A program made the translations under genes and the position numbers. 64,000 bases of DNA from a virus, in IMG/VR virus record IMGVR_UViG_3300045988_183127; one strand, written 5' to 3'. Of the stretch, positions 16,684 to 47,872 are shown piece by piece (the first letter of the stretch is position 1; each line of letters starts with the position of its first letter). Under the pieces are notes generated by a model. The model was given only the letters and a program-made list of their open reading frames with translations. It ran no database searches and was not told the DNA's origin.

Positions 16684-16740
16684 TTGAATTACCCACAACT
16701 GGCTATTGTCGGTTGTGGTTTTTTTGCTTAATTGCGATAA
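16684..16740 (-). repeat. divergent copy (c5) of 57-bp 5-prime UTR repeat family
   Basis: TTATCGCAATTAAGCAAAAAAACCACAACCGACAATAGCCAGTTGTGG on gene strand, directly upstream of the nucleotidyltransferase SD. Confidence 0.5.
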
Positions 16741-16750
16741 TATCATTCTT

Positions 16751-17383
16751 TTATTTTCTAACAATAGCAGAAAAATCTACTGACTGTAAAATCTTAATGA
16801 TATCTTCTACTTCAGGACTTCTCCATGCAGTCATAGCATAGGTATGAGCGTACTCATCGTAATGATAATGATTTGCCTTTAGATGTTCAGCGGCTGCCTT
16901 TTCTGTTAAAAACATTGTGTTTTCATAAATTTTATCTCTATATGCATAACAGGTGAAAGTATATCTGCCATAATTATGCTCATTCAACCAAGTCTTTAAA
17001 TCATCAAGATCAGCTAAACATTCCTCATAATCATTATCTTCTTTTGATGTAACATAATATCCATCATATTCTTTTGAAATAACCCAAGAATCACCGTTTT
17101 CTTCAAATTCCTTATTAAAAAATACAATTGCATCATCAATATTATCAGCAACTTCTTCTACAGCTTCATTATCGATTAGTGTTACACCGTCTTCATATCC
17201 TTCTGGAACAATACACTTTTCTTTTCCCATAATAACCCAAAATCGAGGATCAGCTTGTCCTACATGGTCCTGTGTATTTAATTCATGCTGCAAATCAGAC
17301 AAAAATTTAATTTCTTTATCTGTAATTTTATGTTTCTCTACTGTGTCTGGATGGTATTGTAAATGTTCATGAAATATTGCCAT
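16751..17383 (-). CDS. hypothetical acidic protein
   Basis: 210-aa ORF. Confidence 0.45.
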   Translation of the reverse strand: MAIFHEHLQYHPDTVEKHKITDKEIKFLSDLQHELNTQDHVGQADPRFWVIMGKEKCIVPEGYEDGVTLIDNEAVEEVADNIDDAIVFFNKEFEENGDSWVISKEYDGYYVTSKEDNDYEECLADLDDLKTWLNEHNYGRYTFTCYAYRDKIYENTMFLTEKAAAEHLKANHYHYDEYAHTYAMTAWRSPEVEDIIKILQSVDFSAIVRK

Positions 17384-17410
17384 ATTTTTCTCCTTAAACT
17401 TTATTTATTT

Positions 17411-17647
17411 TTATTCAGTATAGTATTGAAATGCACAATCATACATTTGTTTCCCAGTTATCTGATCTACAAATATAGGGCAATGCCAATCCTTATCAAA
17501 TTCTGTTTCCTTACACCATTCATTAATAACTCTAGTAGTAATTGGTGTGACAAATACATATAAATCTGATTCATGGTGAAATATATCTTTTGCAGAATAT
17601 CCAGCCTCAATAAACCGTTGCATAAGAGTTTTATTATTTTTCTCCAT
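17411..17647 (-). CDS. hypothetical protein
   Basis: 78-aa ORF. Confidence 0.4.
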   Translation of the reverse strand: MEKNNKTLMQRFIEAGYSAKDIFHHESDLYVFVTPITTRVINEWCKETEFDKDWHCPIFVDQITGKQMYDCAFQYYTE

Positions 17648-17696
17648 AATATTGTTCTCCTTTATTTATTATAATTTAAAAGAAATATGACAGAAA

Positions 17697-17725
17697 AAAC
17701 GCACATCATAATGACATGCGTTTTA
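17697..17725 (-). terminator. intrinsic terminator after the DnaE N-terminal gene
   Basis: stem AAAACGCA/TGCGTTTT followed by a T-run on the gene strand, fused to the TTCTGTCATAT box. Confidence 0.6.
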
Positions 17726-17751
17726 ATACAAAATATTCAATTAACTATTCA

Positions 17752-18507
17752 CTATGAGCATAACTTCTTAAGGTTATTCCTCATACCGGCTGACTCAAAC
17801 TGGAAAACATTCTTAGTTCTTCCTTTTGCATATACTTCTTTGTATACCTTATCAGCTTTAGGACCCTCTAATGGAATATTCATTACATCAATTACTTCTC
17901 CTGTATCTCTCTGAATCATTCTGAGTGTGTCAGTAATAATTGTAAGAGTTTTTAATCCAAGAAAATCCATTTTTAATAATCCATTAGCTTCGCACTGAAT
18001 CATGTCCATTTCTGTAGTTTTAATTCCCTTTTTTCCATCTCTAATAGGAATATAATCAGTAACATCATTACTATCATAAATAATAACACCTGCGGCATGT
18101 TGTCCGTATGTCGTAAGCATACCTTCACAATGAGCTGCAATATTAAGAATAGAAATAGCATCTGGATTACTATTATATTCATCCTTTAAGAAATCTAACA
18201 AAGAAATGCTGTCCTGAATATTAATGCCTAATTCATCAACCTTATTAGTATCTTTCATGCCAACAATATCTTCAAAATTAGTTGCTTTAGCAGGCACTTT
18301 CTTACGAATCTGATCTCCTAAAGATAAGAATTTCTTTTCATCATCATAAGCTTTCTTTCCATAATATCTTGCAGCATCTCTGATAGCACCTTTAGCCTGC
18401 TGTCTTGATTCTGTAATAATTCCAACAACAGCTTCACTACCATATTTAGCTCTTACATACTCAATTGTCTTTTCTCTTACTCCAAGAGCAAGATCGCTAT
18501 CGATATC
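17752..18507 (-). CDS. DnaE-like polymerase N-terminal gene, exon 2
   Basis: begins DIDSDLALGVREKTIEYVRAKYG...AKGAIRDAARYY, ends FQFESAGMRNNLKKLCS*; track start is a TTG inside the intron. Confidence 0.8.
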   Translation of the reverse strand, partial: DIDSDLALGVREKTIEYVRAKYGSEAVVGIITESRQQAKGAIRDAARYYGKKAYDDEKKFLSLGDQIRKKVPAKATNFEDIVGMKDTNKVDELGINIQDSISLLDFLKDEYNSNPDAISILNIAAHCEGMLTTYGQHAAGVIIYDSNDVTDYIPIRDGKKGIKTTEMDMIQCEANGLLKMDFLGLKTLTIITDTLRMIQRDTGEVIDVMNIPLEGPKADKVYKEVYAKGRTKNVFQFESAGMRNNLKKLCS

Positions 18508-18932
18508 CAAATATACCCCTACTTTCGTAGTACTTTAACACTTGTATAAGTGGGATTAGACTATATCTCAATATAATATTGTTAATATTATATTTCAACG
18601 CACTTCCAACTGTAACCATTCTCAGTTGTACTCCTTAAAAAGGATAGTCGTTACACTTTAAAATAAATAATATTATATACGAACAATTTTTTATTTATAT
18701 AATATTATTTATAATCTTAGCACGGTATCGCCTGCTATCCTTCAATATCTTTTATATAAAAATATTAGGACCGTAGGTTCTCTTACGAAGCTGCTTCGTC
18801 TATGGGTTAAGCTATATATCCTGTTGTGACACTTTATATAGCAGTCTTATTCAACTTCTACCGTTAGCACTTAATAATAAAATATTAAGCACACCTCTGA
18901 GTTAGAGTCCACGCTGAACGCCCAATATATTT
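18508..18932 (-). ncRNA. putative group I self-splicing intron (ORF-less, ~425 nt) in the DnaE gene
   Basis: interrupts the conserved ERVSMP|DIDxD motif; exon 1 ends with U, intron ends with G; GC-rich structured-looking sequence with stops in all frames. Confidence 0.6.
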
Positions 18933-20726
18933 AGGCATACTTACTCTTTCTGGATTTAAGAATCGTTCAAAAATCAGATTATACTTAAATGGATCAATTC
19001 CGGTAATACCAAGTAAATATGTAACCAATGAACCGGCACCTGAACCTCTTCCAATGCCTATTCCAATTCCGGTATTATAATTGTGAGCCTTAACATACTC
19101 TTTTGCACCTTCAATTGTTAAAGGTACTTCTGATAGTTTATCCATAGGTACTAATCCACAAATTCTTCCATATTCCAAGAAGTCCTTTACAATTAAATGA
19201 TAATCGGCAAAGCCCATCTGAATGATAATATTAAGTTCGTATTCCATTCGTTTCTGATGTTCTTCATCCCATCCTTTTCCGTTAGGATATCTCCAATTAA
19301 TTCCCTTAATTGCTTCAGATCTTAATAATTCGTTTGAGTCCTTATTCTTATCAAATACTGGATAATGATTAGATTTTTCTGGAATATAAGCACATCTTTT
19401 CCCAATTACATTTAAGTTATTAAGTGCTTCTGCAACCTGATCATCTGTTAATATAGCTGATAAAGCCTGAGCAAGTTCGTAAGGTGTCTTTACATATAAT
19501 TCTTTATCTGATTCCGACTCACTTATCTTAATAAATCTTAAAAATTTAGCTACATTACGCATATCAATACTTCTATCAGAATTATCTGCCATATGTGCAT
19601 CATTAGCAGCAACTAATGGGATATTATGCTTCCTTGCTAACTGAGCTAACACAGGATATGTCCTGCTTTCCATTTCAAGTCCATGATTCTGAACTTCAAT
19701 GTAATAATTACCTGCTCCAAAAATTTCCTGATAAAAAAGCATTGTCTTTTCTGCTTCAGACATTAATTCTATTGGACTTTTCTTTAATGATTCATAATGC
19801 TGTATCTTATTTTCATGATTAATGTATTCCTCTACCTTAAGACTTATATCCTTTAACTCGGCTTTCTTAGCATTAACTAATTTTCTGACATTAGGAATTT
19901 TATCTTTAGCTTCCAGAATTTTATTATTTATCTCCTCATATTCATTAATCAGTTTAATAAGCTCTGGATCATCATCATTTAAACACTTCCTTGCATCTCT
20001 TAATTTTCTTGAGATCTGTGTCCTTTCTGATTTAAGTTCCTTGGAATCACGAATATTAATCAATTCATCTAAATCTGCCGATACCCTTTCAAATTCATCT
20101 TTAGCTGAAAGATATTCTTTATCATCAGGACTTATACAATCACGTATCACTAGCTCGTCTTTTTCAGTAGTATGCTGCTGTGCTTTTCTTTCTCTGTTAA
20201 TCATTTTATCCAAAACATCATCTGATAATAATTGCAGAGCTGGTGCACCCGAAACGCAAGCAGAAGTTGCTATTATATCACCGTTAAAGTTATATTTCTT
20301 TAAATCTGATATTGTAATAACAGGCTTTCCCATTCTTTTTTCAGAAGCCTTAGAATTTAACTTATCAATAATATGCTTGCCTCTTTCTGAAGTGGCTAAC
20401 ATAATAATATGGCCAATCTGTTCATTTATCTTAAATGGTGGCACTTCAATATAAGCCTCTACGCCATAAATGATATTAAATGGATGTTCCTCAGTACTTA
20501 TTTTCTTAGCGTAATCAATACATGTTTGCATTGCTGAAAATGATGCATGGTCCGTAACAGCAAATTTAGTATATCCTGCATTAAATGCAGCATCTAAATA
20601 ACTTTTAGGTTCATCTACGGCATCAAACAAAGAGCCTCCTGGATGGTTATGTTCACACACTGTAACTCCTGATTCAATAACCTTTTTTGTTAATTCTCCA
20701 ATTTTTACATGTTCAAACATTGACAT
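18933..20726 (-). CDS. DnaE-like polymerase N-terminal gene, exon 1 (PHP domain, palm)
   Basis: ends [40 protein letters not shown]; track ORF then reads 14 intron codons ([15 protein letters not shown]) to a stop. Confidence 0.8.
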
Positions 20727-20837
20727 TAAATTTCCTCCTTTATAAATTTTATAATTAATACATGACAGAAAAAATACACCAGTTGACTAATCTCAACTGG
20801 TGTATAAATACACATTATTTAATTGTTAATTATTTTA

Positions 20838-21989
20838 TTATTCTACCTTAACAACGTCTCCTCTATCTGATGTTTCAGTAATAACAATATACTTGATTTC
20901 CATATTGTCGTTTGCAAGAGCAATTCTTGTTACATTATCTTCCTTACTTGTATCGACAATCCAATCATATCCTTCAACTGCAGACATTATCTTTGAATCA
21001 GTAATGATTTTATCAACATACTCTCCAATCATAATTCTGTCTTCAAGTCTGATAAAATCAGCACTATTCCAACCAATTGAAACAGATTTAATATGTGAAG
21101 GGATATTAATGCTATTGAGCCTCATTAATGTACCACCATTAAGAGCAATCATTTCTGCTTTAATATGATCCATTTCGATTAATTCCTTAGTATTAGTAAT
21201 TGTATCTAAATGATAATCACAATTATTGCATTCATCATAATCTCCACAATCATTTTCGCAGTCATAACCACAATCACAATCAGGATTATAATAATTATTA
21301 TCACATACCTGCTCTGTATATTCAATGACCCATGTAGGTACATTCATTGAATTTCTTACAGTAATGACATTATTTATTGGTGCGTCAAGCATTAAATAAC
21401 TTGAAATATAATTCTTTGCACCATCATAAACGATAATTTCAGCATTATCAAAATATTCAGCGAAAATATCTTTTCCATTAAAATCCTTCTTTGTTTCAAA
21501 GTGTGTATAGGAAGTCTTTAGTATCACATATTTGTCACATACACCTATAACTTCCGGCATTGGAATTGAAACTGGAATAAGTTTCTTAAACTTATCCTCA
21601 TCCGGCTTATAAGCAAATAAATCAATATAATCATCATGTTCTGTTGTGTTTTCTCTAGGCAATACAGATAATAAAAGCTTACCTGGAACAGATGTAACGA
21701 TACTCTTAATTACCAGTGAACCCTGCTGTGTAGCAGCAACACCATCCTTGAGTAAAATTCCGTCTTCAACTGAATATCCATCTGGAATATCTGGGACATT
21801 AGGATTGCTGATAAGTCTAAAAGCAATTGCGTTAGATGATGATATCATAACAGATATATCCTCGTTTACTTCACCATTTTCTAAAAGACAAGCCGTTCCT
21901 ACGCCATCGGTAACAGATGTAATTAAATACTGTCTGTTGTCAACCTTGTTTAATACTGTTACATTTTCTAAAATTTTGTTTTCTCTCAT
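20838..21989 (-). CDS. hypothetical protein, paralog A, with Cys/Asp-rich insert
   Basis: N-terminus ENVTVLNKVDNRQYL and C-terminus TRIALANDNMEIKYIVITETSDRGDVVKVE match 22122..23171; insert CDNNYYNPDCDCGYDCENDCGDYDECNNCDYH. Confidence 0.5.
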   Translation of the reverse strand: MRENKILENVTVLNKVDNRQYLITSVTDGVGTACLLENGEVNEDISVMISSSNAIAFRLISNPNVPDIPDGYSVEDGILLKDGVAATQQGSLVIKSIVTSVPGKLLLSVLPRENTTEHDDYIDLFAYKPDEDKFKKLIPVSIPMPEVIGVCDKYVILKTSYTHFETKKDFNGKDIFAEYFDNAEIIVYDGAKNYISSYLMLDAPINNVITVRNSMNVPTWVIEYTEQVCDNNYYNPDCDCGYDCENDCGDYDECNNCDYHLDTITNTKELIEMDHIKAEMIALNGGTLMRLNSINIPSHIKSVSIGWNSADFIRLEDRIMIGEYVDKIITDSKIMSAVEGYDWIVDTSKEDNVTRIALANDNMEIKYIVITETSDRGDVVKVE

Positions 21990-22121
21990 AATGAAAAATC
22001 TCCTTTTTTTATTTTATTCAAATAAAATATGACAGAAAAATTAAAACAAAATAGGATTAAAGCATATACATGCCTTAACCCTACTTTTTAAATTAATTAT
22101 AGAGAATTCTGTTAATATCAA

Positions 22122-23171
22122 TTACTCTATGGTTATGATGTCTCCTCTATCTCTTGTTTCAGAAATCACAAGAGTCTTTATCTCCATAGTATTTGTATTA
22201 GCAAGAGAAATTCTTGTAACATGATCCTTAGATGTAATATCAACAATCATATTGTAACCTGCAAGCTCAGCAACTATCTTATCTGGGATCTTATATGTGA
22301 TATCATTAATATACCACTTGCCTGAAGAAGCTTTAATCAGGCTTGCATTATATCCCTTTGAAATTGATTCTGGCACACTGTCAATTGCTGTTGTCTTATA
22401 AAGACTTAATGAATGGCCTTCAGAAGCAACAAATCTTAATGTAATATAATCATCTTCCTTAATAACTCCATCAGAATCGACTACTGTATCTGCTTCAATT
22501 GCGAAAATTGTTTCATTAGGTGCCTTAACAGAATCTACAGCCTTAATTGGCTCCGCAAAAGAAACATGATCAACAACTGCATCAGACATTACATCATATA
22601 ACATGATTGCTGCAGCATCAAAAATATTATCTGTTTCAATAGTTCCATCTTCAAGCTTCTTATCCTTAGTATAAGTTCTTGAATATGTTATATATAACTG
22701 CATCTTATTCTCAGAAGAAGCAATGATTGTAACTTCTGGAATAGATCTTCTGATAAGCTTATTAAACTTATCTGACTCAACTGTATATGACATAATATCG
22801 AAATAACCTTCTCTTGGTTCTCTTGGTTCAACAGATAAAATAAGTCTTCCTGCAACACCTACAATAATACTATTAATTACAAGTGAACCCTGTTCTGTAG
22901 CAGGGACTCCATTCTTAAGCAAAATTCCGTTTTCTACAGTATATCCAGTTGGAACATCTGGAATATTAGGATCATCAATCAGCTTGTAAGCTATTGCATT
23001 ATTAGCTGTAATTACTGCAGTAACCGAATCATCAAGTGAACCATCCTCCTTGATTAACTTGGCTGTTCCTTTAATGGAATCACCCGAACCATCAACATTA
23101 ATTACCTGGTAATTCTTACGGTCTACCTTGTTTAATACTGTTACATTAGTCTTAATCTTGTTTATTCTCAT
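22122..23171 (-). CDS. hypothetical protein, paralog B
   Basis: TNVTVLNKVDRKNYQ ... TRISLANTNTMEIKTLVISETRDRGDIITIE; own box at 22028. Confidence 0.5.
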   Translation of the reverse strand: MRINKIKTNVTVLNKVDRKNYQVINVDGSGDSIKGTAKLIKEDGSLDDSVTAVITANNAIAYKLIDDPNIPDVPTGYTVENGILLKNGVPATEQGSLVINSIIVGVAGRLILSVEPREPREGYFDIMSYTVESDKFNKLIRRSIPEVTIIASSENKMQLYITYSRTYTKDKKLEDGTIETDNIFDAAAIMLYDVMSDAVVDHVSFAEPIKAVDSVKAPNETIFAIEADTVVDSDGVIKEDDYITLRFVASEGHSLSLYKTTAIDSVPESISKGYNASLIKASSGKWYINDITYKIPDKIVAELAGYNMIVDITSKDHVTRISLANTNTMEIKTLVISETRDRGDIITIE

Positions 23172-23281
23172 GATTAAGTCCTCCTTTTATTTTTTATTTA
23201 ATACAAATTACATATGACAGAAAAATAAAAATAAACAAAAAATAGGACTTGTTTTTTTGTAAATCCTATTTTTATTAATTA

Positions 23282-23899
23282 TTAAAATTTATTTAAATTA
23301 ATTGATTGCTGATATTTACTTCTTTTATCATTTATTTTATATGATTTTTGCTTTTCTGTATCATACTTTTTTGCCAAAGAATCTACATATTCATCAAAAT
23401 CAGTTCTTAAATTCTGAGAATTATTATTAGCATAATCAGCTTTTTCTAATTCTTCATTTACAAGATCTGATAGTGATGTCTTAAGAACATGCTCCATTTT
23501 TTCCTTTTCAGTTTTTCTTTTTTCATTATTCTTACGAATTATATTACCGATAACTATTATCGCAATAACAATAACTATAAAAATACCTATACAAATTAAT
23601 ATACCCTTAATCGGAATATTAGTTAAAACATCTGATATGCTATTTCCAATATTTTCTGTAGCTTCTGTAGTACTTTCCGAATCTGTTTGTGAAGTATTAT
23701 ATTCGGTTCTTAAAATTGAAATTAAAATAGAAAATATATATCTTGAAAAAATCAAGATTGTCCCCACTATACAGTTACCAACTCCAATAGATACTCCTGA
23801 CTCATCATCATTTAAAACTGATCCAAGTATATTAGAAAAACCTGTAGCAACAATGATAACCCCTAAGCAGCCTAAACATGTGCTTATTACATTTAACAT
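23282..23899 (-). CDS. hypothetical membrane protein
   Basis: 205-aa, two TM segments, charged C-terminal half. Confidence 0.45.
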   Translation of the reverse strand: MLNVISTCLGCLGVIIVATGFSNILGSVLNDDESGVSIGVGNCIVGTILIFSRYIFSILISILRTEYNTSQTDSESTTEATENIGNSISDVLTNIPIKGILICIGIFIVIVIAIIVIGNIIRKNNEKRKTEKEKMEHVLKTSLSDLVNEELEKADYANNNSQNLRTDFDEYVDSLAKKYDTEKQKSYKINDKRSKYQQSINLNKF

Positions 23900-24162
23900 A
23901 AAAACTCCTTACATTTAAATATACTCTAAAACTATAATTTAAAAATTAACTTAGAGTTTTAAAATAGCATTTTTAATACTTCAATATCATCATATACAAA
24001 TAAACATCGACTGAAATCCCATCTTCAGATATTTCACTGGCAACGGCATGTATTCCATCGATGAGCGTCTTATTTACTTCATTTTATTGCTCAAAATACC
24101 AGCTATAGTCATATGCCTTTATTATCAATTAACACTATCCCAAACACATTACACATCAATTA

Positions 24163-24714: not shown

Positions 24715-25278
24715 TCAAAAATATCTCGAATAAAATAAATCAATCTGATGATACAAATATTGCAAATCCTTATCGTTAGTTATTAAAAAATCATATTCTT
24801 TTGAATTTTTATATGCATCAAATTCCTCTCTTTCACTCTCTAAGCGTATTCGCAAAGTATCAGGATTATCTCCTCTTAGAAGTCCTCTTTTAATTATTTT
24901 ATCCTCAGCCAAATCAACATATACGCAAATTAAATTAAACAAATTATGCTTATTATGCTCTTTTAACCATTTAACGCCATCTGGATTTATAATGTATACA
25001 CATGTATTTGATGGCAAAGCTTCTAATGCAGCACAATATTCTATTCCAGTTTTATTATTTTTTGTATAAGCTATGATTGTTTTTTCTTTTAAAACATTGC
25101 TCATTTCTTCCTTTGAAATAAATATATGTTCTACACCATTTGTCTCATATTCTCTTTTTGGTCTGGTTGTCATTGAAACAACTGAAGGAATTCCATATTT
25201 TTCATTTAATACTTTTGCGACTGTATCTTTGCCACTTGATGTCTTTCCTATAACTGCAATTATTGTCTTTTTATCCAT
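24715..25278 (-). CDS. P-loop kinase, probably phage-type dNMP kinase
   Basis: P-loop IIAVIGKTSSGKDTVAKVL (GKxxSGKDT as in T4 gp1-like dNMP kinases); 187 aa. Confidence 0.5.
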   Translation of the reverse strand: MDKKTIIAVIGKTSSGKDTVAKVLNEKYGIPSVVSMTTRPKREYETNGVEHIFISKEEMSNVLKEKTIIAYTKNNKTGIEYCAALEALPSNTCVYIINPDGVKWLKEHNKHNLFNLICVYVDLAEDKIIKRGLLRGDNPDTLRIRLESEREEFDAYKNSKEYDFLITNDKDLQYLYHQIDLFYSRYF

Positions 25279-25293
25279 ATTAAAAATCTCCTA

Positions 25294-25350
25294 ATGAACT
25301 ACTCACAACCGACATTAGTCGGATGGAGTTTTCTTGCAATTCTTCGATAA
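25294..25350 (-). repeat. copy c1 of 57-bp 5-prime UTR repeat family
   Basis: gene strand TTATCGAAGAATTGCAAGAAAACTCCATCCGACTAATGTCGGTTGTGAGTAGTTCAT, ends 8 nt before the SD of the kinase gene. Confidence 0.6.
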
Positions 25351-25500
25351 CTAATGCCATAAGCAATTATATAATTCATCAATGCGATTCTGGCATCTGT
25401 CAGCTTCTAATTCATTACCGGATTCTGAATACTGGTCCCTTTTAATTTCCCAATTTTGAATTTCTTTTTTTATTCTTGTATATTTACCATTTTCTTTCAT
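25351..25500 (-). CDS. small hypothetical protein (49 aa)
   Basis: SD GGAG then ATG 25500; MKENGKYTRIKKEIQNWEIKRDQYSESGNELEADRCQNRIDELYNCLWH; box 37 nt upstream. Confidence 0.3.
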   Translation of the reverse strand: MKENGKYTRIKKEIQNWEIKRDQYSESGNELEADRCQNRIDELYNCLWH

Positions 25501-25597
25501 ATATTAACTCCTTTTATCTTAAAATTTATTAAATATATGACAGAAAAAAAGTCCCATTTAATTAAATGGGACTAAAAATTATTTTTATGAATTAATG

Positions 25598-25891
25598 CTA
25601 TTTATCATCCATATTTTCATTAATATTATCAATATTAATGACATCATTTTTATCAGCTATTATTATATAAGATGATATTATTTTTGCAATAAATAAAGCG
25701 TTAACTACAATTAAAATAACTCCTGGGATTATGTTATTAAAGTGCTTAATAACATCAAAAGCAATATCAGGAATGAACATAAAAGCTTCAATTATACAAG
25801 AAAATATTACACTATCTATTCCTTTTCTTATGCCTACTATATATTTATCCATGATGTTCTCCTTTTCTTTCCATACTAAATTACTGCACAT
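25598..25891 (-). CDS. small membrane protein
   Basis: 97-aa ORF with two TM helices. Confidence 0.4.
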   Translation of the reverse strand: MCSNLVWKEKENIMDKYIVGIRKGIDSVIFSCIIEAFMFIPDIAFDVIKHFNNIIPGVILIVVNALFIAKIISSYIIIADKNDVINIDNINENMDDK

Positions 25892-31202: not shown

Positions 31203-32777
31203 TTACTTAGTAGAATTCTTTTCTGACTTAGACACTTTCTCAGGAACATTCTTTACAGTTACCTTAATCTCCGGGTCAACATCTTCTGGAATGCCTGTAA
31301 AGTTCACATTCTTTGTTGTCTTGGCATCATATGTATTAGCCTTCATTACTTCTGTAAGGTCAAAACCAGTTGTTTCCTTAACAGATTCAATTGTCTTTGC
31401 AAGTACTGATGGTACATTACTGCTAAATGAACCTACTCCGGTTTCACCATTACCACTGTCAATAATAGTTACCTTATCAATGGCTTCTAATGGCTTTGCA
31501 ATAGCTCCTGCCATCTCTGGAAGTACTTTGATAATCATTTCAGTCATGGCAGCCTTACCATACTTAGCCATTGCATCTGCTTTCTTCTCCATAGCTTCAG
31601 CTTCAGCTAATCCTTTTGCCTTAATACTTTCAGCATCAGCAACACCTTTTGCCTTAATACTCTCTGCTTCTGCAAAGCCCTGTGCCTTTACTGCTTCAGC
31701 TTCCTGTTCCTTAGCAAATCTGTCTGCTTCTGCCTGTGATTTCTTAGCTTCAGCCTGCTTCTGAATTTCAAACTGCTTTGCTTCTGCTTCCTTCTGTCTC
31801 TGATAAAGTTCTGCATCTGCCTTTTGCTGTGCTGCATACTTTTCAGCTTCGGCCTGCTTACGGATATCAGCATCAAGTGTTTTTTCCTTAACAGTGATTT
31901 CCTTTTCTCTTAATTCAATTTCCTTTTCCTGCTTTGCAATATTAGCATTGGCAGTAGTGATTTCAATTGTCTTTCTCTGTTCCTGCTGCTGGATTTCATA
32001 TGCCGCATCAGCTTCAGCCTTCTTAACATCTGCTGCTCTCTTTAATTCCTGCTTCTTAATCTCAAGTTCATTATTTCTTTCTGCAATAGCTGTCTCAGCT
32101 TCAATTCTTGCATCATTAGCCTGCTTTTCAGCATTAGCCTTTGCAACTGCAATATCTCTTTCTGATTCTGCTCTTGATATCTGTGCTGACTTACTGATAC
32201 TTACAACCCTGTCAATACCAAGGTTTTCAATAACATTACCTTCATCTGTAACATTCTGAACATTAAAGCTTACAATTTCAAGACCCATTCTTTCCATATC
32301 AGGAGCAGCATTCTCCTGTACCTTTTCAGCAAATAACTTTCTGTCCTGTACAATATCCTCAAGCTTCATCTGTCCTATAATTTCACGGACATTACCTTCA
32401 AGTACATCTACAACTGATTCTCTGATATAATCTGAATTTTTATTAAGGAAGTTACTTGCAGCCTTTCCAAGCATTTCAGGTGATGAACCAATCTTAATCT
32501 TTACAGCAGAATCAATATTAACATTAATATACTCATTTGTTGGTACTGATTCCTTTGTCTTTACATCAACAGAAATCATCTTTAAATCAAGCTTATCTAC
32601 TCTCTGTAAAAATGGTATCTTAAGTGATGACCTTCCGATAACATACTTAGGTGTCTTTCTAAGTCCTGATACAATAAGTGCCTTGTCTGTCGGAGCCTTA
32701 ATATAACTTGCAAATAATAATGCAATTAATACTACAACCACCGCTACTACAATTCCAATCGTTACTTCAATTCCCAT
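31203..32777 (-). CDS. SPFH/band-7 flotillin-like protein
   Basis: N-terminal TM, SPFH region, long Ala/Glu/Lys-rich coiled-coil tail; 524 aa. Confidence 0.75.
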   Translation of the reverse strand: MGIEVTIGIVVAVVVVLIALLFASYIKAPTDKALIVSGLRKTPKYVIGRSSLKIPFLQRVDKLDLKMISVDVKTKESVPTNEYINVNIDSAVKIKIGSSPEMLGKAASNFLNKNSDYIRESVVDVLEGNVREIIGQMKLEDIVQDRKLFAEKVQENAAPDMERMGLEIVSFNVQNVTDEGNVIENLGIDRVVSISKSAQISRAESERDIAVAKANAEKQANDARIEAETAIAERNNELEIKKQELKRAADVKKAEADAAYEIQQQEQRKTIEITTANANIAKQEKEIELREKEITVKEKTLDADIRKQAEAEKYAAQQKADAELYQRQKEAEAKQFEIQKQAEAKKSQAEADRFAKEQEAEAVKAQGFAEAESIKAKGVADAESIKAKGLAEAEAMEKKADAMAKYGKAAMTEMIIKVLPEMAGAIAKPLEAIDKVTIIDSGNGETGVGSFSSNVPSVLAKTIESVKETTGFDLTEVMKANTYDAKTTKNVNFTGIPEDVDPEIKVTVKNVPEKVSKSEKNSTK

Positions 32778-32811
32778 AAATTTTATTCCTTTCTTTTAGT
32801 AAAAATAAGCA

Positions 32812-32868
32812 TGAACTACTCACAAACGACATTAGTCGGATGGAGCTTTCTTGCTTGATTGCGATAAA
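32812..32868 (-). repeat. copy c2 of 57-bp 5-prime UTR repeat family
   Basis: between type-B box (32908) and the flotillin start. Confidence 0.6.
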
Positions 32869-32994
32869 CATCTTTTAAATTATTTTGTTTACGCCAGTCA
32901 TTAGTAATATGACAGATATTTAATTTATTTTTTTTACATAAAAAATGGCTATGTTTTCACATAGCCATTCAGGAGGGAGGTTTAAAATTTATTG

Positions 32995-34738: not shown

Positions 34739-34885
34739 AACAAATTCCTCCTTTAAATTTTTGATATAAAGGATATGACAGAAAAAAAATCATTAATGAA
34801 AGGAGATTCTAAATTCATGATGATATAACAAAAGCAGGAGATGCTTGCTTATCTCCTGCTAAAATATTAATTTCTAAATTATTTT

Positions 34886-34942
34886 ATGAACTATTCACAA
34901 CCGACTATTGTCGAATAGAGTTTTCCTGCTATTCTTCGATAA
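34886..34942 (-). repeat. copy c3 of 57-bp repeat, stand-alone between a box variant (34975) and a terminator hairpin (34835-34862)
   Basis: TTATCGAAGAATAGCAGGAAAACTCTATTCGACAATAGTCGGTTGTGAATAGTTCAT; no ORF downstream before the hairpin AGCAGGAGATAAGCAAGCATCTCCTGCT. Confidence 0.5.
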
Positions 34943-34988
34943 TTGATTTTTCTTTTTTAATTGAATGTTTTATATATGACATAAAATA

Positions 34989-35423
34989 TCATTTAATCAA
35001 AATTCTAATCAAATTAGAATCTGCATCTGCTACAAAGTTTTCTATTAAGACTATTTTTATAATGTTGCTTTTGTTATCCACGAATGTATATGTTAATACT
35101 GGATTTTCTAATACCGACTTATCTAAATCATAATATTTAATTAGTAAATTTCTTAACTTATCATAAATCATTATGAATTTATCTTTGTGATCATTTTGAA
35201 CGATATGAACCTTCTTATCTTTAGCGTTAAATTTTATTCTGTCTTCCGAAATTGTAAATGCAGAAATTCCATTGTATATATTAAAATTATAACTAAAAAT
35301 ATATTCATAATTAATTTCTGAAATGAAATTATTGATTATCTGGTTTAATTCATATCTAATTTTTTGTCTTGACACTTGTTTTTGTTTTGTTTTTCTCATA
35401 ATTTTAAACATAAAGTCCTCCAT
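34989..35423 (-). CDS. hypothetical protein
   Basis: 144-aa basic ORF. Confidence 0.4.
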   Translation of the reverse strand: MEDFMFKIMRKTKQKQVSRQKIRYELNQIINNFISEINYEYIFSYNFNIYNGISAFTISEDRIKFNAKDKKVHIVQNDHKDKFIMIYDKLRNLLIKYYDLDKSVLENPVLTYTFVDNKSNIIKIVLIENFVADADSNLIRILIK

Positions 35424-38451: not shown

Positions 38452-38532
38452 TGTTGTAAATAATACTCAAAATACTCCATTAATTTGAAAGCATATATAA
38501 TATGACAGAAATAAAAAATAATATGATGATTT

Positions 38533-42091: not shown

Positions 42092-42196
42092 ATAATTTGT
42101 TCTCCTTTTCAATATTATTTAACAAATTAATGACAGAAAAATAAAATAAAAAGCATACATTATATTGTTTTATGCAATACAATGTATGCTTCTGAA

Positions 42197-42583
42197 TCAT
42201 AAATAGAAAAACAACCCTGAATAATAATACTTAGGAAGTTTATCTATCTCTTTACAAATTTGAATAATTCTTTCATCCACTAAGAAAGAATATTGTTTTA
42301 CTCTTCTTACATCAGATTTAAAATAATGTACATCATTTATAAATCCTATAAGAATAGTAAAGAATATAACATAAGACAAAATACTTATTATACTTAATAT
42401 AATATGTATTAAACCTGTAGTTAATAAATTCAAATTTGTAAAAATAGAAATTAACAAAGTTACACATAACTTTGTCTGCTGCATAGCTGTATATTTTTCA
42501 ATATCACGCCAATAAGTTGTATAACCTGCAGCAACAGAGTTATATTTCTTTAAGAAAAAATGATTTAATATATTTTTATTCAT
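42197..42583 (-). CDS. hypothetical membrane protein
   Basis: 128-aa, two TM helices. Confidence 0.4.
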   Translation of the reverse strand: MNKNILNHFFLKKYNSVAAGYTTYWRDIEKYTAMQQTKLCVTLLISIFTNLNLLTTGLIHIILSIISILSYVIFFTILIGFINDVHYFKSDVRRVKQYSFLVDERIIQICKEIDKLPKYYYSGLFFYL

Positions 42584-42989
42584 TATTTCTTCTCCTTTAT
42601 TAATTATATTCTGATAGATATATGACAGAAAAATTAATAGGAGTATGTATATAATTTTTATTCCCTTATTACAATAAATGATAAAGTAATTTTTAGACTT
42701 AATTTAATTAATATGAAAATATCAAATTTATTAATAATAGAGTATGGAGTTTTACTATAATTTTTGTAAAATTACATTTTAGAAAACAAATAATTACTAA
42801 AATATAAATCAGCTTATTAATAGATTAATTTATATATCAAAAATATTCAAAAATATAATTCTGGGTGCTGTTGATATTTTTAAAATTTATAAAAATAATA
42901 TATGAAATGATTCATTTGATTTTAGGGTAACTTTAATAAGAATACCGTGTATACGCCATTCCAAATTCTAAAATATTGATATTATTTTT

Positions 42990-44756
42990 TTATAAATCAA
43001 ATACTAGCCTGTAATTTGGATTAAGAGCAATACTTACGTCATTATGACTTAAGCTATGTTTATCCATAAATCCGCAGGCATCAAGTTTAAAGATGATATC
43101 GTCAACATCATCTTTCCATAATCCCCATTTTTTGTCCTGATAATATATTTTTTCAAATGAATTAAAAAAGCTTGAATTTAAAATAAATTCCTTTATCTTC
43201 TTTCTAAGTATTCTATATTTGTTTGTATGTTTTTTTATTGTATCTAACTTTTCTTTATATTTTTTTACAAGCTTTTGTTTGTCTATTATGGGATTCCTCC
43301 GTGTAGCGCCAACAATTTTTCTTTTATTAATTTCTTTGATATTATTTTTTATCTGTTCAAGTCTGTCAGCATCTTCAGTAAGCTTTCGTGAAATTACATT
43401 TGAAGATACATGCAATTCTTTCATTATTTCCTTATATGTTTTACCCATTGCATATAATTCTACAATTTTATTATATTTAAATTCTCTTCGTTTTTTGTTT
43501 CTTTCTACCTGTTCTTTTTTCTTTAACTTTTCTTCCATTCTATAGCCTTCAAGATTTTTAAGACCATATTCTCTTCTTGCTGTAAGTGGATCCAACCCTA
43601 ACCCTTTTATGAAGGTCGTTGTTTTAAATTTACACCAATTCACATTATTAACATTATTAAAATCTTTGAATGTAAATAGTTCTAATTCATCAATTGATAA
43701 TGGCTCTGAAGTTTTCTTTGTCAGCTTCAGCATTTCCTTTTTTGCAGTTTCATCATCATATGCTGCTCTCAAAGTATTGTATGCGTAATATGCAAAATCT
43801 AATTTATCAACATACTTAGGAACAGCATCCTTAGCAAAATTATTAAGGAATTCTATTCTGTTTATTAAATTATCCTGTAAATATGAAGGAAGGTTTAATT
43901 TATTGCTGCTTTTGCTGTCTGAATCTTCATAGTTTACAATATCATGCAATCTGTCATTATTCTTTATAAAATATAAAGGGTGTAATGTGTTATATAAATC
44001 ATGTACAGTTGTTTTATTCTTATTAATAAATAATAATGTTGGAGTCTCAAAATTTATTGCATCATAAGTTCCAGGTACACGAATTAAAGAGTCACATTTT
44101 ACTGACTCTTTGTCTACTTCAGGGAAACCTAATGAAATTCCATTCATGTCTATTTGTTTATTTATAACCTGTAATAATACCTTTCCTACCAGATTATATT
44201 TCCACAAGAGATCCTTTGATAATTCTTCAATGCCATATATTAATTCAACTTCATTATATATAGCGTTAATAATATTAGGCTTTGGGGCATCTCCTAAAAT
44301 ATAATCATAGTTATTGAGGAAATATTGAATATTGTTTTTATAATCTTCTTCTGGCCATATTATTCTTACACATATAGCTTTTAGACAGAATATGTTCTTT
44401 TCACACCTAGCCATTCGCTTTTGTATTCTACTATGTGGTGTTTTACCAGTACTATACCCTGAAGTAGAAAAACCTATTTCAATTTTGTCATAGAATTCTT
44501 TATCTGAAACAACAGATGTCTTTAATGGGTTAATGCACATATATCTATTATATTCTTCGTTTAAATAATCTTTATTGAGATTAGAAAGCACATCTTTTGC
44601 ATTAGACCTAAAAACTGCTGTCTTAGATGAATCATTAACATTTAATGCAACAAATTGATAATGGCATTGATACTGCTCATTTTCTTGTTCTGTTATAAAT
44701 TTAATAGCCCTCTTCTCATTTTTATCTGCACAATTTAAAAATTTCTGTTTTGTCAT
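42990..44756 (-). CDS. hypothetical protein with C-terminal HTH
   Basis: 588 aa; HTH-like YAMGKTYKEIMKELHVSSNVISRKL, basic C-terminus. Confidence 0.45.
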   Translation of the reverse strand: MTKQKFLNCADKNEKRAIKFITEQENEQYQCHYQFVALNVNDSSKTAVFRSNAKDVLSNLNKDYLNEEYNRYMCINPLKTSVVSDKEFYDKIEIGFSTSGYSTGKTPHSRIQKRMARCEKNIFCLKAICVRIIWPEEDYKNNIQYFLNNYDYILGDAPKPNIINAIYNEVELIYGIEELSKDLLWKYNLVGKVLLQVINKQIDMNGISLGFPEVDKESVKCDSLIRVPGTYDAINFETPTLLFINKNKTTVHDLYNTLHPLYFIKNNDRLHDIVNYEDSDSKSSNKLNLPSYLQDNLINRIEFLNNFAKDAVPKYVDKLDFAYYAYNTLRAAYDDETAKKEMLKLTKKTSEPLSIDELELFTFKDFNNVNNVNWCKFKTTTFIKGLGLDPLTARREYGLKNLEGYRMEEKLKKKEQVERNKKRREFKYNKIVELYAMGKTYKEIMKELHVSSNVISRKLTEDADRLEQIKNNIKEINKRKIVGATRRNPIIDKQKLVKKYKEKLDTIKKHTNKYRILRKKIKEFILNSSFFNSFEKIYYQDKKWGLWKDDVDDIIFKLDACGFMDKHSLSHNDVSIALNPNYRLVFDL

Positions 44757-44926
44757 AAAATACCTCGTAGTGAAAATTCTTATATTATATTTATGACAGA
44801 CAAAAAAAAATTTTTTCTTGCATAAAAAAATAGTGCCATTTTTGGCACTATTAGACTGTAGACAAAATCCGAGGCAAAAACCTCAGATTTTTCTCATTTG
44901 TTCCTATTTTTATCATTAACGCATTA

Positions 44927-45736
44927 TCAATTATCGCCCATAACTATCAGCTCATAACAATCTTCCTCTGTTTTTGACTGATATATATTAAACATGTTGC
45001 AAATAGGATAATACTCTGAATTAAATTTATCAAAGTTGGTAATAAGTTCATTACATGTGATGAAATTATAGTTATTATTTATTCTGCTTGTCTTCGTTAG
45101 AGAATAAATACTATCTTTTATCTGCTTATCGTAGTCCAAAAGAGAACCTTTTCCAAAATCAACTATACACATGGTATTTATTATATGATTAGATTCATTA
45201 GCAGCATTTCCAAAAGCCAAAACATAGTCTTTTATCTCATCAATCTCTTTTGTTTCTTCTCTTTTCCATGAATCATGTCTCTCAGCGTTACAGAACACAA
45301 TCACATCTATGCCATGATTATGCGCTATACCCGCTAGATTTTTTAGCATTAATGTATTTTTATCCGCATTTTCACTGTCTAAAATTACATTTCTCAAAAT
45401 CATGTCATTCTTTTGTTTATTTTTTAACATAGCATTATTAAATATATCCATACTGAGATACTTAAGATAACAGGAATCATTTATGGCTTTAGCTACAGAA
45501 TCCATAGATATTGAACTCTTTTCTTCAAGTGAAAGAGTATCTTCCTCTAATTCTGAACTTGAAGAATTATCAGCACATTCATATCTTTTGCAGAAATCAT
45601 TATACTCATTTATCCATTCAATCGGAATTTCTTTTCCAGCGGCAATAAATCGTCTAATCGCCGATTTAAGTTCCTTTATTCTTTTTAATTCCCATATATA
45701 GCGTGGTATTATCCCTATTGGTGGTTTCTTTGTCAT
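44927..45736 (-). CDS. hypothetical protein
   Basis: 269-aa ORF. Confidence 0.45.
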   Translation of the reverse strand: MTKKPPIGIIPRYIWELKRIKELKSAIRRFIAAGKEIPIEWINEYNDFCKRYECADNSSSSELEEDTLSLEEKSSISMDSVAKAINDSCYLKYLSMDIFNNAMLKNKQKNDMILRNVILDSENADKNTLMLKNLAGIAHNHGIDVIVFCNAERHDSWKREETKEIDEIKDYVLAFGNAANESNHIINTMCIVDFGKGSLLDYDKQIKDSIYSLTKTSRINNNYNFITCNELITNFDKFNSEYYPICNMFNIYQSKTEEDCYELIVMGDN

Positions 45737-45857
45737 ATATTCCTCCTGATTAATATTTTATTAATATCATTGCCATCACTGAATTGTTCGACACAAATTT
45801 CTGTTTTTTTCTTCCCTCTCATAGTGCTATTTCTGGTACTATTAAGTTTTAAATATA

Positions 45858-47783
45858 TCAGCGATTATTTGAAAACGACATATGATTGTTCAAATGTTTT
45901 AAATATGGAGTAAGATATACTTTACGTTCATGATATATTTCTGGGACACATAAGTACATTTGTTTTTTTGCTCTTGTAATAGCAACATAGAATACTCTTA
46001 GATTTTCCTGTCTTTCTTCTTCAGCCATGCTCATAGCATTAAATCCTGGGTAAACTCCTGTAACACAATCAAGTACAAATACATATTCCCATTCCAAACC
46101 TTTTGCTGAATGTACTGTTGAAATAACCAAGCCCTTTTCTTCATCTTTGTTATCCATCCCTAAAGTTAAATTATCAAGAAAAGCGTTTAAAGATTTGTGA
46201 TGATTAAACACTGTACATAATTCATACAATTGTTTTAAAATATTTTTATCATCATCTAATTTATCCTGTTCATTTATTTTTTGCTCTTCATTTAATTTAG
46301 CATTTTCCAATAATTCTTTTCTTTGTTCAATATAATATTCATTTATTTTTAGCACAAGATCAGGGATACTTAACTTGTTCCTATAATACTTGATTCTAAA
46401 ATTCAAAATTGTATTATGCAATTTTTCCATGTCTTGATGAAATTTTTTTGTTGGATATTCATGCAGCAAGAAATCTTTTTCTGTTACATGTTCTACAATA
46501 TTTCTTGCATATGTATCACCAATTCCATATATTAATTGTAATATTCTAAACCACGCTAATGTGTCAATTGGATTAGCAATAACTCTTAAATAGGCTAAGA
46601 TATCCTGGACAGCTTCTCTTTCAAAAAATTTAGGTCCTCCAACTTTTTTGTACGGAATATTATTATTCATTAACAATGTTTCCAATATAGCTGAATCTCT
46701 GGAATACTTCTCTAGCACTGCTATATCCTTATATGGGACATTTTTATTATGCAGCTTAATTATTCTATTTAAAATGCAGGTTGCCTCTTCTGCCTGATTT
46801 TGAAGGCTTATGACTTCAGGCATAGTTCCTTGTTTATTATTACTTATCATATTCTTAGGATATCCAAAATTAGCATACCGGTTCATAACTGAATTTGCTA
46901 AATTAAGTATTTCTGTAGTGGAACGATAATTCTTTTCAAGTTTTATTACTTTGCAATTTTTATGCTTTTTAGGGAAATTAATAAAGTTAGACACATTGCT
47001 TCCTCTGAAAGCATAGATGCTTTGATAATCATCTCCTACAACTGCTAGATTCTCATATTTCTGAGCCATTTTAAATATAATTCTTTCCTGCAGATTATTG
47101 GTATCTTGATACTCATCTACCATAATATATTTATAACTGCTTGAAATTTGATTTCTGACAGCTTTATTATCTAATAATTCGTTAAAGTATATTAACAAAT
47201 CATCATAATCTACCAGATTATTTTCCTTTTTATAATTTTTGTATTTTTCAAACAGCTCCGTATATATATATGATAAAAATGCCAAGTTACTATCTTTAAG
47301 CCCAATAACTGTTTCTAATGGTAAATCTTGATTAATTGACATGCTAAATATTTTGGCAATTTCAGATACAGAGAAGCCGCTTTTTATTTTATATTTTTCT
47401 GGATTTTCAGCTATAAGAAGTTTAATTGTATTTACAACATCGCTCTCAGAAAGTATAGTAAAGTTTTTTCTTAGACCAACTAAAACCCCATATATCCTTA
47501 ACATTTTGGCACAAAAAGAATGATATGTACATGCAGTAATTTTATTGCATCTTTCATCTAATATTTGTGCAGCTCTTTCACTCATTTCATTAGCTGCCTT
47601 ATTAGTGAATGTTAAAAGCAGAATACTCTGAGGTGGAATTCCATTTTCTATCATATATGCAACTCTATGTATTAATGTTGCTGTTTTGCCTGTACCTGCT
47701 CCTGCAATAATAAGTAATGGTCCATCAATTGTTGTAGCAGCTTCATATTGCTGCTCATTTAAAACAGCTTTATAATCAATCAT
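45858..47783 (-). CDS. UvrD/Rep-family SF1 helicase
   Basis: GPLLIIAGAGTGKT, MVDEYQDTN, VGDDYQSIYAFRG, STVHSAKGLEWEYVF. Confidence 0.85.
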   Translation of the reverse strand: MIDYKAVLNEQQYEAATTIDGPLLIIAGAGTGKTATLIHRVAYMIENGIPPQSILLLTFTNKAANEMSERAAQILDERCNKITACTYHSFCAKMLRIYGVLVGLRKNFTILSESDVVNTIKLLIAENPEKYKIKSGFSVSEIAKIFSMSINQDLPLETVIGLKDSNLAFLSYIYTELFEKYKNYKKENNLVDYDDLLIYFNELLDNKAVRNQISSSYKYIMVDEYQDTNNLQERIIFKMAQKYENLAVVGDDYQSIYAFRGSNVSNFINFPKKHKNCKVIKLEKNYRSTTEILNLANSVMNRYANFGYPKNMISNNKQGTMPEVISLQNQAEEATCILNRIIKLHNKNVPYKDIAVLEKYSRDSAILETLLMNNNIPYKKVGGPKFFEREAVQDILAYLRVIANPIDTLAWFRILQLIYGIGDTYARNIVEHVTEKDFLLHEYPTKKFHQDMEKLHNTILNFRIKYYRNKLSIPDLVLKINEYYIEQRKELLENAKLNEEQKINEQDKLDDDKNILKQLYELCTVFNHHKSLNAFLDNLTLGMDNKDEEKGLVISTVHSAKGLEWEYVFVLDCVTGVYPGFNAMSMAEEERQENLRVFYVAITRAKKQMYLCVPEIYHERKVYLTPYLKHLNNHMSFSNNR

Positions 47784-47815
47784 AAATTATTACAATCCTT
47801 TCCATTATTAAATTT

Positions 47816-47872
47816 ATGAACTACTCACAACCGACTATTGTCGGATGGAGTTTTCTTACTATTTTTCAATAA
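47816..47872 (-). repeat. copy c4 of 57-bp 5-prime UTR repeat family
   Basis: between type-B box (47890) and the UvrD start. Confidence 0.6.

Follow-up and report, generated by a model that had tools for sequence, protein, structure and literature searches.

Single-hairpin repeats in a probable large gut phage as remnants of the ends of an IS200/IS605-family TnpB transposon

Introduction

IS200/IS605-family transposons with TnpB, among them IS605 and IS608 of Helicobacter, ISDra2 of Deinococcus and ISGst1-5 of Geobacillus, have subterminal hairpins and no terminal inverted repeats, insert 3' of a short motif without duplicating the target and terminate in a right-end motif, while a structured RNA that overlaps the 3' end of tnpB stops at the right-end boundary (PMC8612924, PMC10055086). 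In this class, tnpB-only copies are commoner than those bearing tnpA, and in autonomous copies a Y1 tnpA is divergent from tnpB. TnpA catalyses both excision and integration by way of a circular ssDNA intermediate, insertion is strand-specific with the top strand on the lagging-strand template, and the omega-RNA draws its guide from flanking DNA. Here, we analyse a 57-nt repeat that recurs five times in a 64,000-nt stretch of viral DNA (IMG/VR record IMGVR_UViG_3300045988_183127; "the window" denotes this whole stretch). We conclude that the five repeats are almost certainly protein-less, single-hairpin hybrids of the left and right ends (LE and RE) of such a transposon, full-length copies of which are found in sibling strains.

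Repetitive extragenic palindromic (REP) elements and REPINs, which are mobilised by the REP-associated tyrosine transposase (RAYT, TnpA-REP), are short extragenic hairpins that are evolutionarily tied to IS200/IS605 ends and co-transcribed, and in some operons REP elements affect mRNA stability. Palindrome-associated transposable elements (PATEs), derived from IS200/IS605/IS1341 elements, are likewise short and non-coding, consist of transposon-end sequence only, lie dispersed in intergenic DNA and are presumed to depend on a transposase in trans (PMC3119063, PMC7290912, PMC10055086). Those described so far retain the palindromes of both LE and RE and often the omega-RNA (PMC10055086, PMC7290912). 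The framework of tnpB-only IS605 elements, of the TAM (transposon-associated motif) and the TEM (transposon-encoded motif), of the omega-RNA and of PATEs has been published (PMC10055086, PMC7290912), and the HUH superfamily is covered in PMC6006769.

The family treated here has its nearest described class in IS200/IS605, with TTAT as the motif 3' of which it inserts and TTCAT as its right-end motif. Unlike the named members, it forms a lineage of large gut phages of 28–32% GC and of Lachnospiraceae metagenome-assembled genomes (MAGs), its 462-aa TnpB has no CxxC...CxxC motif, and the window itself holds end relics in place of a complete element. The window units resemble PATEs in the respects listed above. 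However, they carry one hybrid hairpin instead of two ends, lack the omega-RNA scaffold and measure 53 nt plus TTAT. They differ from REP elements in that they number five copies per 64 kb, are LE/RE hybrids of a tnpB element with no self-standing family, and reside in a phage and not in a bacterial chromosome; an approximate IS200 TnpA probe found no match in the window, and no search aimed at RAYT was made. As an analogy for origin only, solo long terminal repeats (LTRs) arise when the two ends of a retrotransposon, being direct repeats, recombine, so that the interior is lost and a single hybrid end stays behind at the insertion site. They belong to another transposon class with another chemistry, and their repeats are LTRs of several hundred bp, whereas those considered here are hairpin segments of ~35 nt.

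Results

Five units in the window combine a left and a right transposon end

A first-pass annotation, made from the sequence alone, had listed five copies of a 57-bp repeat. All five are present at the coordinates it gave, except that the copy beside the flotillin gene lies one base lower, at 32811-32867 and not at 32812-32868. A self-search of the 64-kb window with nhmmer --max and a profile of the five copies returned exactly these five (E 1e-16 to 1e-19) above noise, all in the same orientation, on the gene (minus) strand, where nearly all genes of the window lie. A 44-nt core pattern with up to three mismatches found three copies, against 0.00 expected from shuffles. When the copies were aligned with 100-nt flanks, the conserved block showed sharp edges, TTATCG...GTTCAT on the gene strand, between unrelated flanks, and the gene-strand consensus was the one previously noted. 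Paralogous copies share 39–50 of 57 positions, which corresponds to 68–88% identity. In the following list each copy is named after its first position, and "box" denotes a promoter-like motif, CTGTCATAT, that is described further below.

16684-16740, minus strand: copy 1 (c16684, divergent), TTAT at 16737-16740 plus a 53-nt mini-element at 16684-16736; the stop codon of ORF 16751-17383 precedes it by 10 nt, and 22 nt downstream the RlaP-type nucleotidyltransferase gene (15672-16661) begins
25294-25350, minus strand: copy 2 (c25294), 15 nt before the ATG of the guanylate/dNMP kinase gene (24715-25278); box at 25535-25543
32811-32867, minus strand: copy 3 (c32811), box at 32907-32915, 39 nt upstream; SPFH/flotillin gene (31203-32777) 33 nt downstream
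34886-34942, minus strand: copy 4 (c34886), 46 nt past the stop codon of ORF 34989-35423; variant box ATGTCATAT (34974-34982) 31 nt before it and an intrinsic-terminator hairpin (~34834-34861) 24 nt after it
47816-47872, minus strand: copy 5 (c47816), box at 47889-47897, 16 nt upstream; UvrD/PcrA helicase gene (45858-47783) 32 nt downstream

The gene calls on which the earlier description relied hold for all four named neighbours, and c34886 does stand alone between a variant box and a terminator, since a terminator and not a gene comes next. The placement of the family in the 5' untranslated regions (UTRs) of five transcription units was overstated. A box lies shortly upstream of c32811 and c47816 only; the closest one to c25294 is 184 nt upstream, and no promoter box separates c16684 from the upstream gene's stop codon. 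Similarly, the hairpin CCGAC-N4-GTCGG, which had been described as perfect, is so in c25294 and c47816, whereas the other three copies deviate: c32811 has GTCGT, c34886 has TCGAC (with a G.U pair), and c16684 has GCCAG, having lost the usual upper stem and forming a 7-bp stem, CCACAAC/GTTGTGG, instead.

Profile models of the two transposon ends account for the whole unit (53 nt plus TTAT), which contains no protein-coding gene. The LE model matches all window copies from the first base to model position ~51, and the RE model matches them from position ~91 to the last base. The 57-mer can therefore be decomposed into TTAT, the flank of the left end, a single hairpin and the terminal 8 nt of the RE. 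These matches leave little doubt that the window units are single-hairpin "solos", LE/RE hybrids of an IS200/IS605-family TnpB transposon. Two LE subtypes are represented among them, both of which also occur in full-length or PATE copies; the 5' part of c32811, CGCAATCAAGCAAG, is the subtype found in the PATE copies of loci L085 and L021. In the 64-kb window, the LE and RE profiles revealed no remnant beyond the five copies, and tblastn found no tnpB.

Further copies in sibling strains and related contigs

Metagenome contigs were scanned with a degenerate pattern and the matches were then profile-filtered. The pattern could match only where the 3' half of the element was present, and the sample is biased accordingly. 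About 130 loci from sibling strains and related contigs (L001–L131) were fetched. Among the matches listed there are over 100 copies, which lie on contigs, human-gut and other, that reach 458 kb in length, and the right-end pattern also occurs in Lachnospiraceae and Clostridiales MAGs. In IMG/VR, two contigs of the same species, 95–103 kb long and 97–98% identical to the window, share the window copies and carry a sixth one outside it (L004:756-811, gene strand); all other matches there were chance matches. Contigs of this phage species also include OCHC01000010.1, ULTP01026055.1 and scaffolds 458 and 727 of ERZ28564510. No close relative of the window was found in the phage GenBank collection.

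Copies with flanks sort into three classes. RE-type copies have only the hairpin and the 3' end in common and form the end of a more extended conserved stretch that is rich in hairpins; in LE-type copies the common portion is the 5' part with the hairpin, and the sequence runs on through ...GTTGTGAG ATGAATTG... into an ORF; solos are like the copies of the window. Among the matches listed, which are biased towards the search pattern, 25 distinct solo contexts stand against 14 of the LE type. The left boundary is TTAT in 37 of 39 distinct contexts and the right end TTCAT in 70 of 71, the latter figure being partly imposed by the search pattern. Across 58 distinct copies, 91.8% of stem cells pair, around 21 different loops.

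The parent element encodes a predicted TnpB and a predicted omega-RNA tail

The full element of the IS200/IS605 family, as found in siblings of the window strain and in related large gut phages, is ~1.58 kb long and has the sequence of the 57-mer at both ends. Its left end reads TTAT/CG...hairpin...GTTGTGAG-ATGAATTG (a slash marks an element boundary), followed by tnpB and a structured, putative omega-RNA tail; its right end reads ...hairpin...GTTGTGAG-TAGTTCAT/ and terminates in ...GTTGTGAGTAGTTCAT. At no fewer than 10 loci (at least), LE/RE pairs lie 1,574–1,580 nt apart on one strand around a 462-aa ORF, and LE and RE of full-length copies each hold a ACTCCATCCGAC-N4-GTCGGTTGTGAGT hairpin. 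The outer edges of the 57-mer, TTATCG and GTTCAT, form no inverted repeat and the hairpins are subterminal; a miniature inverted-repeat transposable element was rejected because the element ends are not inverted repeats.

The 462-aa ORF scores 136.8 bits against the NCBIfam model guided_TnpB (NF040570; cut-off 100) and also matches the Pfam families OrfB_IS605 (PF01385) and Cas12f1-like_TNB (PF07282); by these profile matches it is a TnpB RNA-guided nuclease. Its translation contains GIDPG, EESYTS and NADINGAANI, which we take to be the RuvC-like motifs. A database search returned 5,749 homologues at E<=1e-30, and those with names are "RNA-guided endonuclease InsQ/TnpB" of Butyrivibrio and other Lachnospiraceae. 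No solved structure was matched by phmmer against the PDB at E<=1e-3. In the family TnpB of L028 (4567-5955) and L048 (4205-5590), no cysteines occur at the place of the classical CxxC...CxxC zinc finger.

The loop of the first tail hairpin contains the stop codon of tnpB. This conserved tail folds into several hairpins with compensatory changes in 10 of 36 pairs and ends exactly at ...GTTGTGAGTAGTTCAT; an omega-RNA that overlaps the 3' end of tnpB and stops at the RE is the published arrangement (PMC10055086). Rfam yielded no family up to E=1 on L028 4400-6150. The multi-hairpin extension with its GNRA-like loops had also been considered as the 3' end of a group I or II intron, a candidate that was dropped because the ORF is TnpB and its stop codon lies in the first hairpin.

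Filled and vacant sites reveal the target and the predicted guide

Three sites in the window are vacant where other strains are occupied.

2129-2157, minus strand: vacant site of the full-length 1,576-bp tnpB element; TAM TTAT at 2154-2157, insertion point between 2153 and 2154
61134-61158, minus strand: second full-length site, filled in L046 (91% identical); insertion point between 61154 and 61155, in the 3' end of ORF 61094-61672
15082-15097, minus strand: vacant site of a polymorphic solo, in ORF 14844-15113; TTAT at 15094-15097 and at 15082-15085, 3' junction between 15081 and 15082

At the first site, L048, L014 and L128 carry the full element with a gap of 0, with TTAT retained and without target duplication, which identifies TTAT as the target (TAM) and not as element sequence. 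L048 is 95–96% identical to window positions 1-6752, on both sides of the insertion. Where the window reads ...gaataaTTAT/aaaaaagaaatagg..., L048 reads ...gaataaTTAT/CGAAAAATAG...GAGTAATTCAT/aaaaaagaaatagg... The 25 nt at window positions 2129-2153 equal the sequence after the right end in all three loci, which is the predicted omega-RNA guide, and the vacant target in the window consists of TTAT+AAAAAAGAAATAGGAAAAAT at 2134-2157.

At the second site, TCAT (61155-61158) stands in the window where L046 has its TTAT TAM, and about seven mismatches fall within the 20 nt that would be matched by the omega-RNA guide. In the comparison with L046:7198-8800, identity to the window is 77.6% on the guide side of the element and 91% on the other side. 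The divergence at 61134-61158, a single case, could be a signature of escape from TnpB or of co-conversion.

The third site concerns a solo. In L026 and L055, a 53-nt solo lies inside the homologue of ORF 14844-15113 and disrupts it, while the window, L115 and L036 are without it. Copies in coding regions, which the first-pass annotation had named as evidence for a simple dispersed repeat, thus exist, and full-length copies also sit in the 3' ends of ORFs. Short TTAT-bounded indels coincide precisely with left-end junctions: a 12-nt AAATGACTTTAT is present in the window at 15082-15093, L005, L001 and L061 have a 13-nt TTAT-bounded insertion, TTATATTTCTATA, at the left junction of the c34886 orthologue, and L055 (1076/1077) has a 176-bp deletion that extends from the right end of the solo to just after ...TTATTTAT. 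These changes suggest slippage or aberrant cleavage at TTAT-like sites. An identical TnpB was found at two different loci within one sample, and by these strain comparisons the parent IS200/IS605-type element is still active in sister strains of the window phage.

Four stages of decay and an unrelated second element

The family could be delimited into four decay stages: autonomous, tnpB-only, PATE and solo. The autonomous form was found in L130 and L131, large contigs of related origin that are AT-rich and share the promoter-like boxes. There, the same LE and RE enclose a Y1_Tnp gene (PF01797), at 2345-2869 in L130, and a divergently oriented tnpB. Searches with tblastn detected TnpA in L124, L013, L094, L096 and L014, and autonomous left ends were found as well; GC-rich Lachnospiraceae copies likewise carry tnpA and tnpB. 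Copies with tnpB only outnumber those bearing tnpA. Directly downstream of the autonomous copy in L130, at 4516-4744, lies a 229-nt PATE made up of LE, omega-RNA tail and RE.

A second, unrelated tnpB-only element of IS605 type (1,364 bp) is located at L055:11760-13125, in a clean insertion reading ...AATTGAA/...GTGTCAA/GCTTTTATG; the window is vacant at this site (between 25786 and 25787), within ORF 25598-25891. Its TnpB has 374 aa, an HTH_OrfB_IS605 domain and an intact CxxC zinc finger. A TnpB 39% identical to it is encoded at L004:9093-10202, and L014 has a tnpA–tnpB pair of the same type. Gene-strand orientation is common to the five solos, the L004 copy, the full-length copies at the two window sites and this unrelated element. 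G is enriched on the minus strand (skew on the plus strand, -0.18).

Conservation, folding and placement of the solos

Of the explanations originally offered for the repeat, that of a miniature mobile element proved right in kind, the repeat being an LE/RE hybrid of an IS200/IS605-family TnpB transposon. A cis-regulatory RNA found no support in the Rfam searches, in the divergence of the copies or in the predicted folds, which showed no consistent interaction with the ribosome-binding site (RBS), and the same evidence leaves an operator for a phage regulator unsupported. Between orthologous solos, 61 of 938 positions (6.5%) are changed; for their 200-nt flanks the figure is 110 of 6277 (1.8%). 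This comparison is indicative only, as the flanks are partly coding and the strains not independent. In the two IMG/VR strains, the c47816 orthologue has 5–7 changes in 57 nt, one of which (GTCGG to GTCAG) breaks the stem; the TAAT loop of c25294 becomes AAAA or AAAT in sibling strains while its stem is kept.

Rfam 15 gave no match in the whole window at gathering thresholds and none up to E=1 on window 25230-25420, and a known ribozyme or riboswitch was rejected on these blanks. The window yielded neither tRNA nor tmRNA. The hairpin is more stable than shuffled sequence in four of the five window copies (z -2.4 to -4.4; c34886, -1.1). In predicted leader folds it forms a separate module and the Shine-Dalgarno sequence (SD) is not consistently occluded; sequestration of the SD by the CUCC of the element was unsupported by both minimum-free-energy (MFE) and centroid folds. 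Counts of G.U against A.C cells (36 vs 26, p=0.25, cells not independent) did not significantly indicate the folding strand. On the plus strand, c16684 forms an 11-bp stem (two G.U) followed by U7 (-20.9 kcal/mol, z=-5.1) and resembles a strong intrinsic terminator, antisense to all its neighbours. As a property of the family, a plus-strand terminator was rejected, being convincing only in c16684, with the U-run falling to 3 in RE-type members.

Distances to the ATG are 15, 22, 32, 33 and ~51 nt; a terminator comes after one copy, and another copy is inside an ORF. Under random use of TTAT sites, intergenic placement of five out of five window copies would have p ~1.4e-4, a bias that is expected from survivorship in an 85%-coding genome. 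Promoter-like boxes end in, or precede, TTAT, as in CTGTCATAT-TAT/CG in L130. Taken together, the solos are probably not a regulatory RNA.

The replicon and other features of the window

The window probably comes from a large phage. Encoded on this replicon are a UvsX-like recombinase, a primase, an exonuclease, helicases, RecJ, RtcB and a sigma-70-family sigma factor, and IMG/VR classes its relatives, one of which has a contig of 322 kb, as viral. The "Hodor" gut megaplasmid was rejected as an identity on GC content (44–47% vs 28% here). The strong SD sequences and the Lachnospiraceae relatives of the transposon suggest that the host is probably a member of the Bacillota.

7925-8953, minus strand: sigma-70-family sigma factor, 342 aa (Sigma70_r2 and r4; phrog_351)
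~50844-52634, plus strand: IS3-family insertion sequence with the only plus-strand genes of the window and terminal inverted repeats TGATATG...AAGTAGACA
50905-51588, plus strand: OrfA of the IS3 element (HTH_Tnp_1), overlapping OrfB
51585-52550, plus strand: OrfB of the IS3 element (rve DDE integrase core)

The CTGTCATAT motif has 30 sites in the window (28 on the minus strand, 2 on the plus strand), against 0.89 expected; those on the minus strand include 1245-1253, 22027-22035, 32907-32915, 47889-47897 and 62434-62442. It is mostly seen as TTTTTCTGTCATAT, ~25 nt upstream of the SD, and also occurs in the related contigs L014, L020, L085 and L130. A two-part box, TTTATGTAAAAA-N~18-ATCTGTCATATT, which the first-pass annotation had called the type-B box, comes after terminators. 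The CTGTCATAT boxes look like a phage-specific promoter class, and the 342-aa sigma factor is a candidate for the protein that reads them.

A DNA polymerase (phrog_405) is split into two ORFs ~6.8 kb apart on the minus strand, 18885-20726 (N-terminal, profile positions 48-443) and 10389-12074 (C-terminal, 661-1101). About a dozen ORFs lie between the halves, including the exonuclease and the nucleotidyltransferase, as does solo c16684. The same replicon encodes an RtcB RNA ligase (phrog_1075; 62819-63976, minus strand) and, at 15672-16661 on the minus strand, the RlaP-type nucleotidyltransferase of the "RNA repair pathway", a combination that hints at a phage RNA-repair module.

Discussion

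The full account that we favour, to which we assign a probability of roughly 0.6, combines derivation of the solos from IS605-type ends with collapse in situ and no dedicated regulatory role. Parent or PATE copies would arrive at TTAT sites by TnpA-catalysed, single-strand "peel-and-paste" transposition. Deletion between the ~35-nt directly repeated hairpin segments of LE and RE would then collapse them, much as solo LTRs are formed, and leave a fossil without tnpB, without omega-RNA and with one hairpin. Such a fossil could probably not be excised, and fossils would therefore accumulate, surviving only where they are tolerated, in the TTAT-rich intergenic leaders and spacers. Their common orientation would mirror the strand specificity of the transposon family, and the solos would be passively co-transcribed with downstream genes. 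The different LE subtypes, together with a paralogue identity of only 68–88%, point to several independent, old events and not to one recent burst.

Several observations weigh against this account. No member of the family's tnpA or tnpB was detected in the 64-kb window, the tnpA negative being weak since the IS200 TnpA probe was approximate. Across the ~130 fetched loci, no full-length or PATE copy was seen at any of the five solo sites. The solo that is polymorphic at ~15082 has no tnpB-bearing allele in the sample and would fit a mobile mini-unit equally well; nor is its filled/empty pair perfectly clean, given the 12-nt TTAT-bounded difference and the adjacent 176-bp deletion in L055. The faster divergence of the solos is, as stated above, only indicative, and an incidental effect of the solos on mRNA stability or translation may exist.

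Once derivation from IS605-type ends is granted, we judge collapse in place to be the likelier origin and movement as mini-units less likely. In the latter case the single-hairpin 53-nt units would themselves be mobile, like REP elements: an autonomous IS605 copy of phage or host would provide a Y1 TnpA in trans, and this enzyme would cut 3' of TTAT and 3' of TTCAT around the hairpin and move the unit to a new TTAT. None of the cis features known to matter is lost, since the unit still has the TAM, the A-rich stretch on the 5' side of the hairpin foot, the hairpin itself and the TEM, and among the matches listed distinct solo contexts exceed LE-type ones (25 vs 14), although the sample is biased towards copies that match the search pattern. 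TnpA acts with two hairpins, one per monomer, which speaks against mobility of single-hairpin units. The polymorphic solo without a visible tnpB allele favours mobility, as do the TnpA genes of sibling and related phages; the 68–88% identity, the differing LE subtypes and the decay of orthologous copies, including stem-breaking changes, are unlike a recent burst. Protein-less IS605 derivatives are known to be mobilised in trans (PMC10055086), but the described PATEs retain both ends. On balance, we regard independent mobility of the solos as doubtful.

It is considerably less probable that the relics have been exapted as cis-acting signals in leader or intercistronic RNA or DNA, be it as an mRNA-stabilising stem-loop, as a phage-protein site co-regulating the kinase, flotillin, helicase and nucleotidyltransferase genes, or as an antisense terminator on the plus strand. 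Four of the five copies lie 15–33 nt upstream of a start codon on the sense strand, and the hairpin outperforms shuffles in as many. All five solos are kept at the same sites in every sampled sibling strain, c16684 has its plus-strand 11-bp stem and U7, and the order promoter box, element, terminator is found independently at c34886 and in the L020 group. Yet transposon ends explain the sequence fully, Rfam has no match, orthologues diverge faster than their flanks and tolerate a broken stem. Start codons lie anywhere between 15 and 51 nt away, with one copy before a terminator and one in an ORF, the hairpin folds as a module of its own without consistent occlusion of the SD, the plus-strand U-run shrinks to three U in RE-type members, and the downstream genes share no common function. 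A coding role of the plus strand, through an 18-codon mini-ORF (MNYSQPTLVGWSFLAILR followed by a stop), a small peptide or an antisense sRNA, has a negligible probability. An ATG or TTG start and a TAA end are present in all five copies, but reverse-complementing the transposon end TTCAT yields the ATG, and the TTAT target yields the TAA in the same way; the mini-ORF was rejected on this origin of its end motifs, on internal stops in three of five copies and on the lack of an upstream SD.

A more speculative proposal, which we consider improbable, is that co-infecting phages are engaged in a gene-drive-like conflict in which the solos, instead of being neutral debris, are "immunised" alleles favoured by selection. 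The TnpB–omega-RNA of siblings is predicted to cut the vacant TTAT plus guide match, and window 2129-2157 matches the guide of L048 exactly. Because a 53-nt solo parts the TAM from the guide match, an occupied site would resist cutting and homing without the burden of the 1.6-kb cargo. The window allele at 61134-61158, TCAT with a diverged guide region, would be a resistant allele of another kind, and phage populations would gather solos and TAM or seed mutations as drive-resistance alleles.

The kind of transposon whose debris is seen here, IS200/IS605, is already known, whereas the TnpB lineage is undescribed. Its ends, with TTAT as the TAM and TTCAT at the right end, and its omega-RNA tail are newly defined, and with an AT-rich TAM and no zinc-finger cysteines the lineage may be of interest for the mining of compact nucleases. 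What looked like a conserved leader RNA, with a hairpin of variable loop on the sense strand upstream of ribosome-binding sites, is best read as transposon-end debris, and scans for riboregulators in phages therefore need to be screened against IS200/IS605 ends. The window and its sibling strains represent a natural population of a large gut phage of 28% GC that is polymorphic for a TnpB element. As vacant sites match the predicted guide of the element exactly, TnpB "homing" between co-infecting phages, which would be analogous to the spread of homing endonucleases in T-even phages, is directly testable in this population.

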